This document shows, piece by piece, positions 7,274 through 34,608 of a DNA stretch of 41,987 nucleotides. The stretch spans positions 1 to 41,987 of the IMG/VR virus record IMGVR_UViG_647533160_000006, one strand, 5' to 3'. The number at the start of each line of letters is the position of its first letter. The stretch's first letter is position 1. Origin of the DNA: a virus (taxonomy: Duplodnaviria > Heunggongvirae > Uroviricota > Caudoviricetes). Under the pieces are notes generated by a model. That model was not told where the DNA came from. It saw nothing but the letters and a program-made list of their open reading frames with translations, and did not search any database. The translations under genes and the position numbers were made by a program.

Positions 7274-9115
7274 CTACTGCCTGGTAGCTTCGTTAGTTAG
7301 GAGAGGGCGAACGGCGTTAGCAGCCTGATTTAACGCTCGCTCATATGCCGGAGTTCCAGGCTTGACGTTTGCAAGGCGGAGAAGCATGTTTCTTGCTGCT
7401 TTAGACTCATACAAACGCATCATTGCACCAAAGCCAGCCTCAAGCCCCATTGATACGCCAAGAGTTGCAGTTGCGCCAATCGTCCTTATCCTGTTGGCTT
7501 GCGATTGCCCCGTCTGAGTTACTACATTTGCGGTGTCTGACCTTGCTGTTTGCTGTAGAACTTCATGAAGAGCATCAAGCTCTTTCATGTGCTTTCCAGA
7601 AAAAATAGTGTTGTAAATTTCACCGCCTGACTGAGATTTCAGCTTATTAACTTCAGTGATGAACTTGGCTGGAGAGTCACCGGCCTTTTCCGCTATTTTG
7701 CTGACGTAAGCTGCACGCATAGCATCTTTCCCTTTATCATCCAATGCGCTCCAGATTCGTTTCACGTCAGATGGTTTTCTGCTTAATACAACGGTATTTA
7801 TAAGTTCAGGACTGGCTTCACTGCTTGCCTTGTTGAGCTTGTTAGCAATGTTTTTATTAAGCACCTTATTATAAACGTTTGCATAATCGGAATTTGCTTT
7901 AAGGTATTTTGCTGCGTCTGATGCACCGAGGTTTTTAGCAACTGCGTTACGAAGGTCTTTTGACATTGCATTCTCTACCATATTGGTAGCTGCTTTTGCC
8001 TGGTTGGGGAAGACCATAGCATCTCCCTGAACATTAGATCTAAATGCTGTTCTGTGCTGACGCAAGAGATCAAACGTAACATCCAAATCAGTTGCAGGGT
8101 TTGCTAATTCTTCACGTAGGTTACGCAAGGATGTAAGCAGGCTTTGATTGGCAGACGTCCCAAGCCGTTCCTGTCTTGCGATCGCTGTATTCAGAGCATT
8201 CATGGTATTTGTGGTATCAACTGCGGCATTACCCATTTTATTGGTGACGTCATTGATAACAGCGCCAGCGGCATCCTTCCGCCACCTTAACGTGGTGGTC
8301 AGAGATTTCACCACATCATCAGGGTTATACTCACCAAAACGGTCAAAATAATTACTTACCAGCTTACTACGCGTTGCATATTGCTCAGCTCGCTTTGAGC
8401 CTGTCCCGAGCAAAGCTCCCTCGGCATCCTGAGTAAGGCCGCGAGTGAAAGCATTTTTCGGCGGGATAACATCAGATGTCATTGGTGTCACGCCCATCGA
8501 TTCTGATGTGGCAATTTTCTTCGCCACTTCTGGCGCAATATCACCTTTTATAGCCGTTATTCCACGCCCTATTCCCTTTGCTGCTGCGGAAAGAACACCC
8601 TGAGCGGCAAGGTTAACTCCGGCATTTTTAGCTGCATTTTGTGCGAAATCGCCTTTCTGATTTGCGGCCTCTGCCAGTGATCCAATAGCCATGCTTCCTG
8701 CCGTTCCAACTCCTGGAACTAAATACCCACCAATTGTTTCACCTGCTTGTGCGTAGGGGTCTGTCGGTCTGTCTACTGGACGATAGACATCATCCAATAC
8801 TTTTGGCCCACCAAGCCCCTGACTGATTGCATTAATCAGACTTGCGCCACCCTGCAATACGTCAAATGGTATGTTTACCAGACCACGACCAGCCTGTTCT
8901 GTAATTTGCCCTGCACTTTGACCACCAGTGAGCCAACCGCCAGCTTGTTGCATCAATGATGGTTCTTCCCGTGTTGGTGCATTATTGGCATGATTAACTG
9001 TTTGTTGCTGAACAGCCTGACCAGCAAAATACTCATCAATGGCGGTGCCAATATCTTCGGTGCTCGTACCATCAGGAAAGGTAAATGTCTTACCGTTTGC
9101 AGTTACTTTCATCAT
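7274..9115 (-). CDS. Ejection (DNA transfer) protein, P22 gp16-like
   Basis: 613 aa, last gene of the late operon, size and order as P22 gene 16; Ala/Gly-rich. Confidence 0.8.
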
Positions 9116-29622: not shown

Positions 29623-30483
29623 TCACCTGTCGAAAAACACGTAGCCAGTTTTCGATACGGTGATTGCGGATGATGGTTTGGATTGTGGTTGAATAGTTTC
29701 TGGCTTCTCGTCGTTCCAGCGTTGACCGTTCAGGTAGCTCGATGGTAACAACCTGTCGAATCCGAACTGCTTACCATTCCTGCATGCGATGTCTTCTGCC
29801 AGCATCGTGGCAAACTCTCTTGCCGTACCCTTGGTAGTTTTACGCCATTCCCTGAACTGTGTTCTGAATGCCGAAGCTGCGTTTTTCTTCCCGGCTTTCC
29901 GCATGCCTGCACACCAGAATATTTCCTCGAATGCCTTGTCGGTTTCTTCGTGACGGTCATGTGATTTTTCACACTCCGTCCGAACACTTTCGGACATAGT
30001 GTTTTTATTATTTCTTTTTTCTTTTGTAATAGTTTCTTTTGTGTGTCCCTGTTTTGGTGACAGCGCTGTCACCGTTTTGGTGACACTTTTTGTCACCAAT
30101 GCAGTGACATTATCACCAGAGTAGTGACACCCTTCTATTTGCCATTCCTCGATGTTCTTGTTAGGCCCGATTTGCTGGCCTTCGCGAAGGATAACCTTCA
30201 TCGCGATAAGCTCATTCTTGGCCTTGTTTACCTTCTGTCTTGGCAGCCTGGTAATTTGAGCTAACTGACTATCAGAGATGCGATCCATCTTTTTACCGTA
30301 GCCGTATGTTTTACGGCATATGGCGTGGGCAACCTTGCTCTGATTTTTAGTTAAATCTGCGCCGATAAGCTCTTCATACAGGGCATTTGCAAGACGGGTA
30401 TAACCATCTTCAACTTCTGCCACACGACGCTCCACAGGCCGTTGTGAAGGCCTTAAATGTGTTACGGTTGCAAGATTACTCAT
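29623..30483 (-). CDS. O: Replication initiator, lambda O-like
   Basis: N-terminal region ...[56 protein letters not shown] resembles lambda O; iterons lie inside the gene. Confidence 0.8.
30050..30135. repeat. Replication origin iterons (about 4 GGTGACA/TGTCACC dyad repeats) with adjacent AT-rich tract
   Basis: GTTTTGGTGACAGCGCTGTCACC, GTTTTGGTGACACTTTTTGTCACC, CAGTGACATTATCACC, AGTAGTGACACC in series inside the O-like gene; AT-rich tract at ~30000-30045. Confidence 0.7.
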
Positions 30484-30622
30484 GACCTTTCTCCTTCTGC
30501 ATCAGCTTCACTTTTTCCAACTCAGCCCGGAATCGACCAGGCTGCTTGAAGCTGGACAGGAAGCGATCACGTAGTATGTGTTTGTGAATTTTGTCCTGGT
30601 AAGGACTGAGTTGTTTTGTCAT
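30476..30622 (-). CDS. Small hypothetical protein (48 aa) between cII and O
   Basis: ATG 5 nt after AGGAG; [48 protein letters not shown]; stop overlaps O start. Confidence 0.4.
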
Positions 30623-30656
30623 AATTACTCCTGTGGATTGATCCAGTCTTTCTACA

Positions 30657-30935
30657 TCAGGCCTCGAAGAATTCGCCGTTCTTCGGGGCTTTTTCTTTTG
30701 TCAGCATTCTGGCTACTTGCTTAGCCAGTTCCGCCAACTCCTCGTCTTCAACACCCCATTCAAGAACAGCCAGAAGCATTCCCATTTTTGGGATGAAGCT
30801 ATCTTTCCATCGCGAAATTTGCGATTCATTAATCCCTAACGCGTCGGCAACCTTTCGCTGACCACGTACAGCAATTCGATTCAGGATGTTGCTTGTAATT
30901 GCATTCGCTTTCTTGCGAGTACTTGTAAGTTCCAT
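30657..30935 (-). CDS. cII: CII-like transcriptional activator
   Basis: From [62 protein letters not shown], resembling lambda CII; AAGGAAA RBS; the track ORF is extended upstream. Confidence 0.8.
30661..30700 (+). terminator. Plus-strand intrinsic terminator antisense to cII 3' end (OOP-like)
   Basis: GCCTCGAAGAA-TTCGCCGT-TCTTCGGGGC followed by TTTTTCTTTTG on the strand opposite cII. Confidence 0.6.
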
Positions 30936-30992
30936 ATGTAAGTATTTCCTTAACAAATAAGAAGTTATGCGCATCAACTTATGCGCGTTGTA

Positions 30993-31037
30993 TTCCCGCA
31001 TTTCGGCGGGAATGATGACCATGACTGTTAAAGAGCG
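30993..31037 (-). promoter_or_regulatory. nutR (boxA + boxB)
   Basis: Minus-strand read CGCTCTTTAACAG (boxA) then hairpin TCCCGC-CGAAAT-GCGGGA (boxB) between cro and cII; boxB is identical to the nutL copy. Confidence 0.75.
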
Positions 31038-31043
31038 GTGTTA

Positions 31044-31238
31044 CTATTTGTTTTTCTTGTTGCTTGGGAAAGGACGAACTTCCTCTCCAATCACACTGCC
31101 ATCAGGCTTTACCGTAACCATGATGTTACGGCCTGCCAGAATGGCCTTGCTGATAGCGCACTGGATTACACCAAAGTCACTGGCTGCTTTAGCCTGTCCA
31201 TGGATTTTGGCGTAATCGGCAAGTGTCATTCGAATCAT
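31044..31238 (-). CDS. cro: Cro-like repressor
   Basis: C-terminal part [40 protein letters not shown] parallels lambda Cro; GGAGA RBS; divergent from cI. Confidence 0.8.
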
Positions 31239-31268
31239 ATGCACTCTCCGTTATTAACCATGAACAAA

Positions 31269-31333
31269 GAATACTACAGGTATTCAAAGCAATCAATACT
31301 CAGGGTATTTTTAGTTTAAGTACCTTAGCTATT
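31269..31333. promoter_or_regulatory. OR operator cluster with pR/pRM
   Basis: GAATAC-N5-GTATTC at 31269-31285, AATAC-N5-GTATT at 31294-31310, weaker AGTAC-N5-CTATT at 31318-31333, ~25 bp apart; TAGAAT -10 six nt before the cI ATG. Confidence 0.7.
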
Positions 31334-31344
31334 AGAATTAAGCT

Positions 31345-32061
31345 ATGGAAAATAAAAAATCACTGACGACAGAACAGCTCGAAGACGCTAAGCGGCTTAA
31401 GGCTTTGTATGAGTCAAAAAAGAAAGAATTGGGAATAACCCAATACTCAATCGCTGATGAACTGGGTATCACCCAAGGAGCGGTAGGGCATTATCTTAAT
31501 GGCAGAAACGCGCTAAACGTTGAGGTTGCATCTGGTTTTGCACGATTGTTGCAAGTCTCAATTGCTGATTTTAGCCAGTCAATTGCTGCCAAGGTTGCAG
31601 AACAGGCAGAAAGCCTTAAGAGCGATGCCAACGTAAGGTATGCAGGGGAATACAGAGCAGGAAAGAGGTATCCGGTGTTAAGCAGTATCCAGGCTGGCTC
31701 GTGGTGTGAAGCATGCGAACCATACACCATTAAAGACATAGATGTTTGGCTTGAGTCTGACGCGCATATTCAAGGTAATGCGTTTTGGCTTAAAGTGGAA
31801 GGTGATTCAATGACGGCACCGGTTGGGTTAAGCATTCCAGAGGGAACATTCGTTCTTTTCGATACCGGAAGGGAGGCGATCAACGGCAGCTTGGTCATAG
31901 CAAAACTTTCTGACTCTAACGAAGCAACATTCAAGAAGCTGATAATCGACGGAGGAAATAAATACCTCAAGGGACTTAACCCTGCATGGCCTCTCGTGCC
32001 AATCAATGGAAACTGCAAGATTATAGGCGTTGCAATTGAGACAAAACTAAGGCTGGTTTGA
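31345..32061 (+). CDS. cI: CI-like prophage repressor (HTH + LexA-type S24 peptidase domain)
   Basis: 238 aa; N-terminus LTTEQLEDAKRLKALYESKKKELGITQYSIADELG parallels lambda CI; C-terminal ...VEGDSMTAP...FKKLI... autocleavage-domain pattern. Confidence 0.85.
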   Translation: MENKKSLTTEQLEDAKRLKALYESKKKELGITQYSIADELGITQGAVGHYLNGRNALNVEVASGFARLLQVSIADFSQSIAAKVAEQAESLKSDANVRYAGEYRAGKRYPVLSSIQAGSWCEACEPYTIKDIDVWLESDAHIQGNAFWLKVEGDSMTAPVGLSIPEGTFVLFDTGREAINGSLVIAKLSDSNEATFKKLIIDGGNKYLKGLNPAWPLVPINGNCKIIGVAIETKLRLV

Positions 32062-32078
32062 TCACGCAAGGGGCGCTT

Positions 32079-32447
32079 ATGGTTGGAACCGCTATAGCAA
32101 GCTTTTTTGGGATGTTGGCAATCTCGACAATTTACGGCTTAGCGCATGCTTTTATTGCGAAATCTCTATCAGAAAAAATAAGCCAGGCTTGGGCGCATAG
32201 GTCAGCTCGTTTCATGATTCTGGTGATCATAGCAATACAAGGGATATCTGCATTTATCCTCTATGGATCAAGCTTATACCTATTGTATCAAGGCGCGACA
32301 TTTACGCCTTACACCAGTGATTACGGAACTCTATACGATGGTAGTGAAGACATCTCTATGGCTTGGATTGTCTTTGGTTTATCTATGGCCGTGTCTGTTG
32401 TAGCAGATATCATTAAGGTAATTCTCGTCTTAACCTTCGCTGACTAA
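32079..32447 (+). CDS. Small multi-TM membrane protein co-transcribed with cI (rex slot)
   Basis: ATG 6 nt after AAGGGG; ~122 aa with four hydrophobic segments; overlaps/abuts cI stop; no similarity to RexA/RexB that I can see. Confidence 0.6.
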   Translation: MVGTAIASFFGMLAISTIYGLAHAFIAKSLSEKISQAWAHRSARFMILVIIAIQGISAFILYGSSLYLLYQGATFTPYTSDYGTLYDGSEDISMAWIVFGLSMAVSVVADIIKVILVLTFAD

Positions 32448-32535
32448 CCTATAATCCCGGCAGCAATAGCTATCGGGATCCACTTCACATATCCCGCATA
32501 AAAAGCACTGAACAAGCAGACACCGAAAAAAATAA

Positions 32536-32621
32536 ATATCCTTTGTATTCATTTGCTTATCATTATTTCATCAAAAATAAATACCTTGGGTATTTACACA
32601 ATAAAATACCTACAGTATTCT
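32536..32621. promoter_or_regulatory. OL operator cluster with pL
   Basis: Same half-site family as OR: AATAT-N5-GTATT (32536-32550), AAATAC-N5-GTATTT (32579-32595), AATAC-N5-GTATT (32604-32620); candidate -35 TTTACA / -10 TATTCT. Confidence 0.65.
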
Positions 32622-32666
32622 TTAGCCATCAGCAGGACGCTGGTAGCCAAACGGAACATATTGGCA

Positions 32667-32708
32667 GGCTCTTTAACATTGATGGGATTGTCCCGCCGAA
32701 ATGCGGGA
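32667..32708 (+). promoter_or_regulatory. nutL (boxA + boxB)
   Basis: GGCTCTTTAACA (boxA) then TCCCGC-CGAAAT-GCGGGA (boxB); RNA sequence identical to the nutR boxB. Confidence 0.75.
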
Positions 32709-33019
32709 ACCAAAGAGTAGTTGGCTTTGGGGTGACGTGAAGTGCAGCTGCACGACGGCAACCGGAAGATAAGCACCCGGCGCGTCACCGCCAAAGTCAA
32801 TTCCATAGGCGAAATGCAGCCGCCAAACACAGCCAATGCTGCACATGCAACAGGAGGATTTATGTGAATGCATAACTTCAAAACCGAGGTTAATTAAATC
32901 TCTCGATCCGAGCATTGACCTATTAGGTGGCGAGATGCTCTTTCTGCCCCTCAGTTCGAGGGGCCAGAAACCACTTTGCAATCACTATCAATTCCAAAGT
33001 TGTTTCATCGGAGGTCAAC

Positions 33020-33325
33020 ATGACAGTAGTCATTACATATCTGGCTGACGATAACGCCAGAAATCGCCGCAGAGCACGCAGACAGGCTCAACGTGAACAG
33101 GCAATGCAAGAGCAGCTACTGGCGCGAAAAATTGCGCTAAAGCTCTCTGGTTGCGTCAGGGCAGATAAAGCAGCATCACTCGGAAGCCTTCGCTGCAAGA
33201 AGGTAGTAGAAGTCGAGCGTAAACAGAACCGTATTTACTACCGCAAGCCACGCAGTGAAATAGGTGTGACTTGTGTTGGTCGCCAGAAGCAACGCGGAAA
33301 ATCAATTCCAGCTTATTGCGATTGA
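33020..33325 (+). CDS. N: N-like antiterminator
   Basis: From ATG 5 nt after GGAGG; N-terminal Arg-rich motif DDNARNRRRARRQAQREQ; ~101 aa; the track ORF is extended upstream. Confidence 0.75.
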   Translation: MTVVITYLADDNARNRRRARRQAQREQAMQEQLLARKIALKLSGCVRADKAASLGSLRCKKVVEVERKQNRIYYRKPRSEIGVTCVGRQKQRGKSIPAYCD

Positions 33326-33333
33326 GGTGAGCC

Positions 33334-33498
33334 ATGCTCAAGAAAGTCAAACGCCGACTTTACAAAGAAGGTAGATATTCATGCCAGTTGCCAAAATGCG
33401 ACACAACAAAATGGAGTGTCGATGATTGGTGTAACTGGATAGATAGATACGGAACTTGGTGGGAACGTATTTATTTTCGCAGCAAACCACTTATTTGA
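33334..33498 (+). CDS. Small Cys/Trp-rich hypothetical protein (54 aa)
   Basis: GAGGTG RBS; MLKKVKRRLYKEGRYSCQLPKCDTTKWSVDDWCNWIDRYGTWWERIYFRSKPLI; below track length threshold. Confidence 0.45.
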   Translation: MLKKVKRRLYKEGRYSCQLPKCDTTKWSVDDWCNWIDRYGTWWERIYFRSKPLI

Positions 33499-33506
33499 GG
33501 TGATAT

Positions 33507-33593
33507 ATGGAAGAAGAATTTGAAGAGTTCGAAGAGCATCCGCAGGATGTGATGGAACAATACCAGGACTATCCGTATGACTACGACTATTGA
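33507..33593 (+). CDS. Acidic aromatic micro-protein (28 aa)
   Basis: GAGGTG RBS 5 nt before ATG; MEEEFEEFEEHPQDVMEQYQDYPYDYDY; stop overlaps the ral start; the RBS-start sequence is duplicated at 33828-33845. Confidence 0.35.
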   Translation: MEEEFEEFEEHPQDVMEQYQDYPYDYDY

Positions 33594-33777
33594 TAAAAAT
33601 CAATGGTGTGGACAATTCAAGCGATGCAATGGATGCAAGCTGCAATCGGAATGCATGGTTAAGCCTGAAGAAATGTTTCCTGTAATGGAAGATGGGAAAT
33701 ATGTCGATAAATGGGCAATACGAACGACGGCAATGATTGCCAGAGAACTTGGTAAACAGAATAACAAGGCTGCCTGA
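33577..33777 (+). CDS. ral: Restriction alleviation protein Ral
   Basis: 66-aa MTTTIDKNQWCGQFKRCNGCKLQSECMVKPEEMFPVMEDGKYVDKW... matches my recollection of lambda Ral. Confidence 0.7.
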   Translation: MTTTIDKNQWCGQFKRCNGCKLQSECMVKPEEMFPVMEDGKYVDKWAIRTTAMIARELGKQNNKAA

Positions 33778-33796
33778 TGGTGGCCTTTATTTTTTG
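33767..33796 (+). terminator. Intrinsic terminator after ral
   Basis: AAGGCTGCC-TGAT-GGTGGCCTT followed by TATTTTTTGG. Confidence 0.6.
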
Positions 33797-33836
33797 GCCG
33801 TAAATAATTTCATGCTTATTACAATCAAGGTGATAT

Positions 33837-34259
33837 ATGGAAGAACAAGCAAACAAGATTCTCGTAGAACTACTGCAAAAAGCCAGTAATGGAATAGACG
33901 CGGCTGTTTCATTTAGCCAGGCACAGATTCCTGATGTTGTTCATCAGTTGCTAATATGGAGTTTTGTCCATAGCGCACTTTTCCAAGTGGCTGGATTGTT
34001 GCTTTTAATTGCAGCAATTAAACTTCCTAGTTTTGCAAGAACGGCAAGAAATAATGGCGAGAGATGGACGTCTTTCGATGGACGTCCAAATGATGGACAT
34101 TTTATATCTTCGGTTTATTACGATATATGCACTGTATTTGTTCCTATATTTGGCTCAATTATGGGTGTTTTAATTATTGCCTTCAATTTCGAATGGTTGA
34201 AGATTTGGCTTGCACCTAAGTTATTCCTAATTGAATATGCGGCATCATTGGTTAAGTAA
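33837..34259 (+). CDS. Membrane protein, candidate superinfection-exclusion factor
   Basis: 140 aa with two strongly hydrophobic helices (ALFQVAGLLLLIAAIKL, VFVPIFGSIMGVLIIAF); flanked by terminators on both sides. Confidence 0.6.
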   Translation: MEEQANKILVELLQKASNGIDAAVSFSQAQIPDVVHQLLIWSFVHSALFQVAGLLLLIAAIKLPSFARTARNNGERWTSFDGRPNDGHFISSVYYDICTVFVPIFGSIMGVLIIAFNFEWLKIWLAPKLFLIEYAASLVK

Positions 34260-34263
34260 TTTC

Positions 34264-34289
34264 AGGCCGCATAGTCGGCCTTTATTTTT
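34264..34289 (+). terminator. Intrinsic terminator after the membrane protein gene
   Basis: AGGCCG-CATAGT-CGGCCT followed by TTATTTTTGG. Confidence 0.7.
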
Positions 34290-34311
34290 GGCATAAACAA
34301 CAGAGGATAAC

Positions 34312-34608
34312 ATGGAATTTAAAGGTACTGAAGGTAAGTGGGAAATAATGATGGATGGCGATGAGATTAAAATCATCCATGCAGACTCTCTTGAAAATGG
34401 CACAGGCTGGCGTTCGTACATTGCAATCTGTGAGGAAGTTCAATGCATTGAAGATGCCAATCTAATAGCGGCAGCGCCTGACCTTCTCGAAGCACTTCAG
34501 TTATTACTTAAGCAAACCAAAAATAGAACAACGACAACATATCCAGAATGGTATGGAGCTGTTAATAAAGGTCTCGCAGCAATAAGAAAAGCTCTTGGGG
34601 ATAAGTAA
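34312..34608 (+). CDS. Hypothetical early protein (98 aa)
   Basis: ORF with GAGGA RBS; family not recognised. Confidence 0.5.
   Translation: MEFKGTEGKWEIMMDGDEIKIIHADSLENGTGWRSYIAICEEVQCIEDANLIAAAPDLLEALQLLLKQTKNRTTTTYPEWYGAVNKGLAAIRKALGDK

Follow-up and report, generated by a model that had tools for sequence, protein, structure and literature searches.

The DNA analyzed here is the IMG/VR virus record IMGVR_UViG_647533160_000006, taken at its full length of 41,987 nucleotides (nt) and called the window below, which is the genome of a P22-like (IME10/HK620-like) Escherichia coli phage. On its plus strand, the early leftward (pL) transcript has its untranslated leader in the interval between the promoter pL and the antiterminator gene N, and this leader consists of two units, a lambda-type long stem (Unit 1, Stem I) and a 204-nt insert (Unit 2, hereafter the cassette). 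The cassette is non-coding, is optional among related phages, and carries four predicted hairpins and a start-stop, in which a Shine-Dalgarno (SD) sequence precedes an AUG and an immediate stop codon. We give roughly 0.55 to the reading that the cassette is a cis-acting leader RNA module which would load a ribosome on the start-stop to tune N expression. The features of the leader, including short open reading frames (ORFs), are the following, all on the plus strand.

32593-32621, plus strand: pL, hexamers TTTACA and TATTCT with a 17-nt spacer, found by promoter scan at the position of the annotated pL of HK620
32667-32708, plus strand: nutL, with boxA GGCTCTTTAACA (32667-32678) and the boxB stem-loop UCCCGC-CGAAAU-GCGGGA (32691-32708)
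32710-32730, plus strand: small CCAAAG-N9-CUUUGG hairpin, an alternative to the base of Stem I
32723-32798, plus strand: Stem I, in which GGCUUUGGGGUGACGUG is predicted to pair with CGCGUCACC-G-CCAAAGUC; presumed RNase III substrate
32802-33005, plus strand: the cassette, an optional leader module of 204 nt, present in HK140, CUS-3 and many prophages and absent from HK620, 21 and lambda
32815-32843, plus strand: H_A, an invariant 6-bp stem UGCAGC/GCUGCA with a loop that varies in length and sequence (RNAalifold and pair counts)
32852-32867, plus strand: start-stop mini-ORF, with AGGAGG (32852-32857), an AUUU spacer, AUG (32862-32864) and UGA (32865-32867)
32868-32897, plus strand: 9-codon ORF MHNFKTEVN, with a second AUG directly after the UGA and in the same frame
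32887-32899, plus strand: GAGRUUAAUUAAAU, an A/U-rich single-stranded block in which two frames have UAA stops
32910-32940, plus strand: H_C, an outer GAGCA/UGCUC helix and an inner 5-bp helix, with GCUCUU contained in the 3' arm
32946-32964, plus strand: H_D, GCCCCUC-AGUUC-GAGGGGC, its stem of 7 bp GC-rich and not followed by a U-tract, not scored as a terminator
32967-33006, plus strand: H_E, GAAAC..CUUUG / CAAAG..GUUUC, ending directly before the SD sequence of N
33010-33014, plus strand: ribosome-binding site of N, GGAGG
33020-33325, plus strand: N, 101 amino acids (aa), with the arginine-rich motif NARNRRRARRQAQ

The pL transcript probably starts near 32628 (ATCAGCAGG...), as judged from the conserved ATCAGCAGGACGC common to lambda and phage 21, and its first 13 nt match those of lambda. 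The nutL site coincides with the annotated nutL of HK620, which is 98% identical to the window here; its boxA GCTCTTTAAC and boxB CCCGCCGAAATGCGGG are repeated on the opposite strand in nutR, in the gap between cro and cII, where the same boxB (TCCCGCCGAAATGCGGGA) was found. The N product gave a weak Pfam N_peptide match (E=0.0011, below the curated cutoff) and is homologous to the annotated N of HK620 and HK140. An earlier reading made from the letters alone (the sequence-only reading) had taken 32709-33019 for a structured N leader, and nutL and N do flank it as assumed. All of the motifs which it listed were found on the plus strand, displaced by 1 nt at most: CCAAAG (32710-32715) and CTTTGG (32725-32730), GGTGACG (32731-32737) and CGTCACC (32783-32789), the palindrome GTGCAGCTGCAC (32742-32753), the boxA-like letters GCTCTTTCT (32937-32945), GCCCCTC-AGTTC-GAGGGGC (32946-32964), and the AGGAGG, ATG and TGA of the start-stop.

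Folding z-scores were computed against dinucleotide shuffles. The leader was structured beyond chance, as had been proposed (z-scores of -5.1 over 416 nt and of -4.2 over 32709-33019), and none of 100 shuffles was as stable as the real leader. In an alignment of the window with HK620, HK140, CUS-3, lambda imm21 and lambda, all leaders share the ATCAGCAGGACGC start, the nut site and then a stem, the arms of which begin with GGCUUUGGGG and end with CCAAAG. In HK620, phage 21 and lambda the SD sequence of N follows almost directly after this stem with no insert, whereas the window, HK140 and CUS-3 have 204 extra nt (32802-33005) between GTCAAT and CATCGGAGG; in the window, the N ribosome-binding site thus does not adjoin the stem, from which 204 nt separate the GGAGG at 33010. 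From pL to N the leader measures ~392 nt in the window versus ~222 nt in lambda and ~188 nt in HK620. The CCAAAG/CTTTGG and GGTGACG/CGTCACC arms and the 12-bp palindrome all belong to the shared stem, and the start-stop and the boxA-like hairpin belong to the insert. The sequence-only reading was therefore borne out in that the leader is more elaborate than those of lambda, 21 and HK620, with a conserved 204-nt start-stop module between the stem and the N ribosome-binding site, but what it treated as one integrated structure is a known stem followed by an optional, portable cassette. A simple deletion or insertion through the flanking TCAAT or CCAAAGT repeats was rejected as the origin of the two forms, since neither reproduces the HK620 junction.

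A scan of 30000-34500 against Rfam (E up to 10) gave no match in the leader (32640-33019). In the minimum-energy fold of the whole leader, the spacer between boxA and boxB of nutL, CAUUGAUGGGAUUG (32676-32689), pairs with CAAUCACUAUCAAU (32979-32992) at the 3' end of the cassette, which would place nutL beside the N ribosome-binding site. This long-range pairing was rejected as a general feature because the CUS-3 allele has a run of A instead of the complementary segment.

The long stem shared with lambda

By sequence, Stem I is the homologue of the long stem in the lambda N leader and hence an already-known kind of element. The sequence-only reading had drawn CCAAAG...CTTTGG as a hairpin of its own; the letters are present, but the base of the long stem is in competition with this pairing, which is absent from the minimum-energy fold. 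In the predicted folds, CUUUGG (32725-32730) pairs with the downstream CCAAAG instead of the upstream copy, and the palindrome GTGCAGCTGCAC forms a small apical hairpin of Stem I. Lambda shows the equivalent CAAAG...CUUUG, and an apparent equivalent in phage 21, CCAGAAC...GUUUUGG, was recognized by reading the aligned sequence. The same helix was predicted with ViennaRNA in the window, HK620, lambda, imm21 and five other leader types, and the nine types, which include lambda, 21, HK620, the P22-type and the H-19B-type, keep the stem through compensatory changes. Its base is 8 bp in all nine (GGCUUUGG/CCAAAGYC, with one bulged nt in the 3' arm), and the extension of 8-9 bp varies by type yet stays complementary (UGACGUG/CGCGUCA, UGUGUG/CACACA, AUGCGGUG/CACCGCAU and AUUGGAUG/CAUCCAAU).

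The apical part of Stem I is a mosaic, variable module. In L055, L012 and their relatives, Stem I is much longer (~150-163 nt, with a predicted folding free energy of -57 to -69 kcal/mol) on the same base and bulge. The promoter and terminator scan of the region returned, besides pL, only a weak terminator-like match on the minus strand, which lies in the 3' arm of Stem I (32776-32795); the regional count equals the shuffle expectation, and the match is most likely due to chance.

In lambda, the long stem of the N leader is a substrate of RNase III, and its cleavage relieves the repression that N and the Nus factors exert on N translation at nutL. RNase III and N autoregulation in the lambda N leader are reportedly the subject of work by Kameyama in 1991 and by Wilson in 1997 and 2002. 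Baniulyte et al. 2017 (PMC5725501) describe N and Nus factors at nutL as repressing N translation across a highly structured leader of ~200 nt, and the title of Wilson et al. 2002, as referenced there, states that RNase III modulates the N-translation repression. By analogy, Stem I of the window phage would be cleaved by RNase III as well.

Conservation of the cassette

Three IMG/VR scans, each anchored differently (on the start-stop 18-mer, on the H_C/H_D region or on the stem of H_A), returned essentially the same 62-64 loci, and anchors excluding the 18-mer never recovered a true cassette that lacked it. Among sequenced phages, the cassette was found only in HK140 and CUS-3 (the latter with 72% identity). 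Of 5426 complete E. coli genomes, 159 carry it, and they fall into identity classes of ~99-100%, 97-98%, 92%, 75% and 71-73%, and the insert-free junction of the HK620 type was present in 311 E. coli genomes. A scan of 185,579 species representatives gave chance matches only, and a metagenome scan gave known alleles only. The additional loci L024, L062, L067, L074-L077 and L155-L162 were rejected as unrelated. One of them, L074 (~7400-7460, IMGVR_UViG_3300045996_003190), has a P4-like region that encodes an AlpA-like protein and includes TTGACA...GATTATGCTCTTTCTGCCCCTGAGAAACAGGGGGC. The 16-mer ATGCTCTTTCTGCCCC is common to this region and to the H_C/H_D junction of the cassette, probably by chance. 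In the searchable literature we found this cassette nowhere described.

In phages and prophages the cassette was found at one fixed position, in pL leaders, and it stands behind three classes of nut site and N, namely the HK620/21-like nutL and N of the window, the P22-type boxB GCGCUGACAAAGCGC with a gene-24-like N, and the H-19B-type N. Two loci differ in what follows it. In L038 (IMGVR_UViG_2558309087_000002), an unrelated first gene, a 66-aa ORF (MSSRISNEQKDRLCRLLSEFG...), lies between the cassette and N. In L058 (IMGVR_UViG_3300034682_000410), the cassette is followed by an SD sequence and the first codons of N of the HK620 type (ATGACA), ~170-300 nt past the start-stop, then by a junction, a second SD sequence and the H-19B-type N (MTRRTAFTGSSAGRRRERR...), and the start of the remnant opens a 28-codon upstream ORF (uORF) overlapping the real N start.

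The core of the cassette was also found in eleven near-identical conjugative plasmids (MOBH/MPF_F) of Klebsiella, Citrobacter, E. coli and Serratia, with ~73% identity to HK140. The representative copy is as follows.

1495-1625 of L163 (NZ_AP018396.1, ~68,033-68,163), with ten sister plasmids: plasmid core, from the SD sequence to H_D

It lies between a 166-aa hypothetical gene and the hok/flmC locus, upstream of an S-adenosylmethionine (SAM) methyltransferase gene. Its mini-ORF reads ATG TAA, its H_C is GAACA/UGUUC, the stem of its H_D is kept with a new loop, and the 9-codon ORF is present.

The collected cassettes amount to 32 distinct sequences of about five allele types, in which short identical blocks alternate with segments of ~35-55% identity and with 2-nt indels, a pattern that fits neither protein coding nor recent recombination. 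No reading frame on either strand is open across the alleles, being broken by 2-nt indels and by stops in most, and the cassette reading frames gave no Pfam matches; the cassette is non-coding. A 41-codon ORF starting with GTG (32742-32867) ends with the ATG-TGA of the start-stop and corresponds to the 41-aa coding sequence HK140_048; its frame is not conserved, and this call looks spurious. On the minus strand, PGAP annotates ORFs of 129 aa (WP_011478232.1) and 138 aa (WP_249398376.1) in strains NU14 and SH21, which run across nutL, Stem I and the cassette (L005 1322-1711 and L004 1322-1738, both on the minus strand, corresponding to ~32594-32981 of the window). That the interval codes for such a long antisense protein is suggested by these calls, but neither the window nor six other allele types keep the frame open, and it gave no Pfam match; the antisense ORFs were accordingly rejected as genes, and the call is probably spurious.

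Four hairpins are predicted in the cassette, and three of them (H_C, H_D and H_E) are supported by covariation. Across the cassette hairpins, 99.2% of 1120 cells are paired versus 39-46% when the partners are slid, five pairs have changed on both sides, and none of 500 shuffles reached the observed covariation score. The outer helix of H_C shows a compensatory change from G-C to A-U in L058 and the plasmid, and between the window and CUS-3 its inner helix has two pairs changed on both sides and one changed on one side. The stem of H_D is rebuilt as CCCCGUC/GGCGGGG in the CUS-3 allele. H_E carries a double change from C-G to U-A in the P22-type allele, with 98.8% of cells paired. The z-scores are -3.6 and -3.2 on the plus strand versus -2.1 on the minus strand and, together with the G-U pairs, indicate that the folded molecule is the plus strand, that is the pL transcript.

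The boxA-like letters bear on a further interpretation, in which GCUCUUUCU and the GC hairpin after it would form a second nut site (boxA and boxB) that re-recruits N or another antiterminator and Nus factors just before N. GCUCUU does match the boxA core, a stem-loop follows directly, AUGCUCUU is conserved in nearly all alleles, and a boxA in a 5' untranslated region (UTR) can repress translation through Nus factors, as is set out in PMC5725501. The letters GCTCTTTCT, called boxA-like by the sequence-only reading, turned out instead to be the 3' arm of the hairpin GAGCA/UGCUC, in which GCUC of GCUCUUUCU pairs with GAGCA (32910-32914) and GUUC in L058 and the plasmid is matched by GAACA. The loop of H_D is free, with seven forms (AGUUC, AAUUC, AUGUC, UUAU, UAUAU, UAAUU and GACAG), none like the CGAAAU of the boxB in nutL and nutR. 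Moreover, the element is shared by phages of three N specificities, which argues that it is not a site read by N, and by a plasmid region with no N annotated nearby. With its core paired, its loop unconstrained and its occurrence indifferent to the type of N, the second nut site was rejected and is held to be very improbable.

The 18-mer containing the start-stop, AGGAGGATTTATGTGAAT, was identical in all 80 phage- or prophage-type loci tabulated (81 loci when that of the plasmid is counted in), and it is kept in alleles whose identity over the insert is only ~65-72%. By column shuffling, an 18-column run of identity has P = 0.02 over the whole cassette and P = 0.003 within its variable center. 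The predicted energy for opening the SD-AUG-UGA stretch is 5-6 kcal/mol, similar to that of the N ribosome-binding site. No consistent predicted pairing partner for the start-stop was found across the alleles; the partners differ by allele, in keeping with a sequence that something other than a fixed helix maintains. A switch between SD and anti-SD (AGGAG with CUCUU of the boxA-like arm) was rejected as a general mechanism, being a strong prediction in the CUS-3 allele only and different in the others. A GUG start within AUGUG was also rejected, as the plasmid reads AUGUA. Downstream, the A/U block TTAATTAAAT is invariant in the 32 unique phage sequences, and in the plasmid it is TCTAAATAAAC, with two UAA triplets kept 4 nt apart; the conserved UUAAUUAAAU, which reads UAAAUAAA in the plasmid, provides two frames with UAA stops.

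The same SD sequence could also drive the 9-codon ORF MHNFKTEVN, and the functional unit would then be a leader peptide, the translation or stalling of which remodels H_C 13 nt downstream as in classical attenuation. The second AUG and exactly 9 codons are found in four or five lineages including the plasmid (MHNFKTEVN in the window type, MHNFKTQIN in L012, MPTFNFEIN in L058 and MHKFKSESK in the plasmid), the changes include a synonymous TTC to TTT and a conservative T to S, and the stop (32895-32897) lies 13 nt before H_C. Against this, F and E are the sole constant positions, and the CUS-3 allele, which accounts for 30 of the 80 phage- or prophage-type loci and is probably the commonest class in E. 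coli, has AUA where the second AUG would be and runs into an in-frame stop after 5 codons while the start-stop is kept. The universal feature is thus the start-stop and not the leader peptide, which is a live rival; as the functional unit, a coding product, whether this peptide or the antisense protein above, is considered unlikely.

A candidate role in N expression

The cassette is independent of N and nut specificity and its core occurs on plasmids, so that it most likely acts through the host machinery. The start-stop yields no product, and any role of it must be regulatory. In the reading that we favor, an RNase III cut in Stem I would uncouple N translation from the repression exerted by N together with Nus factors, as in lambda, and the four cassette hairpins would form on the pL transcript with a single-stranded stretch left between H_A and H_C. 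A ribosome would be recruited to the start-stop on the nascent leader, and its presence would alter the fate of the ~215 nt of RNA upstream of N, which would be the 5' end of the N message after the cut. It could do so through the way in which H_C to H_E fold downstream, by protecting against RNase E or by shielding from Rho, and the outcome would be the level at which N is set. As a speculation, the cassette might alter the lambda-style autoregulation too.

Several observations weigh against this ribosome-loading reading. AGGAGG followed after 3-9 nt by ATG and a stop occurred in ~7% of 42-kb sequences simulated with a first-order Markov chain fitted to the window; the start-stop alone is not beyond chance, and its weight must come from conservation among relatives. 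H_A and the mini-helix never vary, so that they show no covariation and are uninformative on structure, and the covariation elsewhere rests on about five or six lineages with few independent events. No clear C-rich, G-poor rut-like tract was found after the mini-ORF in 60-nt windows; the highest C/G ratio, 2.2 at 32938-32997, falls in a stretch predicted to be paired in H_D and H_E. About two thirds of the prophages with this leader type are without the cassette, the effect of which is therefore not essential, and the family is narrow, being confined to enterobacterial prophages and one plasmid lineage. In the plasmid, the change from TGA to TAA is a single transition only, and no plus-strand gene is annotated between the element and hok/flmC ~230 nt downstream; given this context, an account of the cassette as a pure 5'-UTR regulator may be incomplete.

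Some of these points would equally suit a neutral mosaic filler, that is a recombination scar or what is left of a former gene, carried along with the immunity region and keeping its motifs by recent descent only. The early regions of lambdoid phages are highly mosaic, and one allele, ZJ3920, is a recombinant; the cassette is dispensable, as the 311 insert-free genomes show; the family is young and narrow; and an SD-led start-stop arises by chance at the simulated rate given above. The alternation of identical blocks with segments of ~35-55% identity is, however, unlike recent recombination, the compensatory changes keep H_C, H_D and H_E paired, and the identity run over the start-stop is improbable (P = 0.003-0.02). 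The constant position of the cassette behind three nut and N types and the survival of its core in an unrelated plasmid backbone with a stop-preserving change point the same way, and we regard the filler as an improbable explanation.

The plasmid context, in which the copy adjoins hok/flmC and the methyltransferase gene with no adjacent downstream gene on the same strand, would also suit an element of another form, either a stable small RNA (sRNA) released from the pL transcript and acting in trans or an element that works as DNA, for example a binding site for a protein or a single-strand promoter as in plasmid leading regions. With an RNase III stem flanking them, the conserved hairpins could be the source of a discrete RNA. 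The scans gave no promoter- or terminator-like sites within the cassette on either strand and no Rfam family, the strand-specific G-U pairs fit an RNA of the plus strand, the hairpins are short (5-10 bp), and among phages and prophages the element is confined to its one position in pL leaders; such a form is accordingly quite improbable.

A wider proposal builds on the ribosome-loading reading. The ~125-nt core (SD sequence, AUG-stop, A/U stop block, H_C and H_D) might represent an undescribed class of mobile, host-factor-dependent cis-regulatory RNA, a ribosome-sensing start-stop riboregulator that moves among temperate phages, in their early leaders, and conjugative plasmids. Such a riboregulator would determine, without dependence on the phage antiterminator, how strongly the genes made first after DNA entry are expressed. 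This is put forward tentatively, as a proposal with the odds against it.

The genes around the leader are arranged as follows.

Around the leader region, minus strand: cII and cro
31345-32061, plus strand: cI; the plus strand is the direction of the lambda leftward operon

A hydrophobic ORF of 129 aa (32058-32447, plus strand) starts 4 nt before the cI stop and is probably co-transcribed with the repressor gene cI in the lysogen. It gave no Pfam match above the cutoff and takes the position of hkaS in HK620 and of rex in lambda; it might be an exclusion or defence gene.

Comparison with known systems

N is the first regulator made by a lambdoid phage, and its level feeds into the lysis-lysogeny decision and, in Stx phages, into toxin expression. 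For the control of translation by a transcription complex and RNase III, the textbook example is the N leader of lambda. The leader of the window resembles it in the order of pL, nutL, a long imperfect stem with the base GGCUUUGGGG.../...CC-N-CCAAAG, and then N; the base and the bulge of the stem are homologous in sequence and the extension covaries. It differs from the leaders of lambda, phage 21 and HK620, in which the SD sequence of N lies within ~10-20 nt of the stem, in that 204 structured nt with a mini-ORF are interposed. The cassette is slotted into the N leader in roughly a third of the prophages with this leader type, and HK140 and HK620, with flanks ~98% identical, form a natural pair with and without it for the function of a start-stop in a 5' leader. 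If the cassette were inert, the region would be a known N leader with mosaic filler.

Compared with nut sites, the cassette has a GCUCUU core and then a stem-loop, but its core is paired, its loop is unconstrained and differs from the boxB of the phage itself, and it is independent of N type.

The bar minigenes of lambda were reportedly treated by Hernandez-Sanchez et al. in 1998. They consist of two sense codons (AUG AUA stop), cause peptidyl-tRNA drop-off in Pth-deficient hosts, and lie far downstream near att and ssb. Like the start-stop, they are very small ORFs led by an SD sequence on the pL transcript of a lambdoid phage, and their effect comes through the translation machinery and not through a product. 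Unlike them, the start-stop of the window is a single codon that allows no peptide bond and is located in the N leader instead of near att and ssb, and the 9-codon ORF adjoining it is absent from the CUS-3 allele.

An AUG-stop that serves as a minimum uORF in the plant NIP5;1 transcript is said, after Tanaka et al. in 2016, to cause ribosome stalling and decay of the mRNA. The two cases share a conserved AUG-stop in a 5' leader; NIP5;1 depends on eukaryotic scanning and on boron and has no sequence relationship to the cassette.

Among bacterial leaders, those in which uORF translation controls the access of Rho and the folding of the leader (tnaC, speFL, mgtL and corL, as covered in the review PMC12360218) are similar in that a short ORF lies in a long structured leader and ribosome occupancy decides the fate of the downstream RNA. 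They differ from the window in that a start-stop permits no ligand-sensing peptide, no clear rut-like tract was found, and a polymerase modified by N would resist Rho.

Start-stops themselves have been described in E. coli, where, according to Meydan et al. 2019 (bioRxiv 10.1101/520783), they bind ribosomes and modulate expression; the sites treated there lie inside genes and out of frame and have a modest effect (~16% for yecJ). Start-stop candidates in Campylobacter are likewise mentioned in PMC11955535. The site in the window shares with these the SD-like sequence, the AUG and the immediate stop, and is unlike those of E. coli in being located in a 5' leader, within a conserved structured RNA on a mobile cassette, with a second AUG adjoining. 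The cassette-bearing leader is best described as an N leader with an added conserved module, and as a natural 5'-leader case of the start-stop class so far found mainly within E. coli genes.

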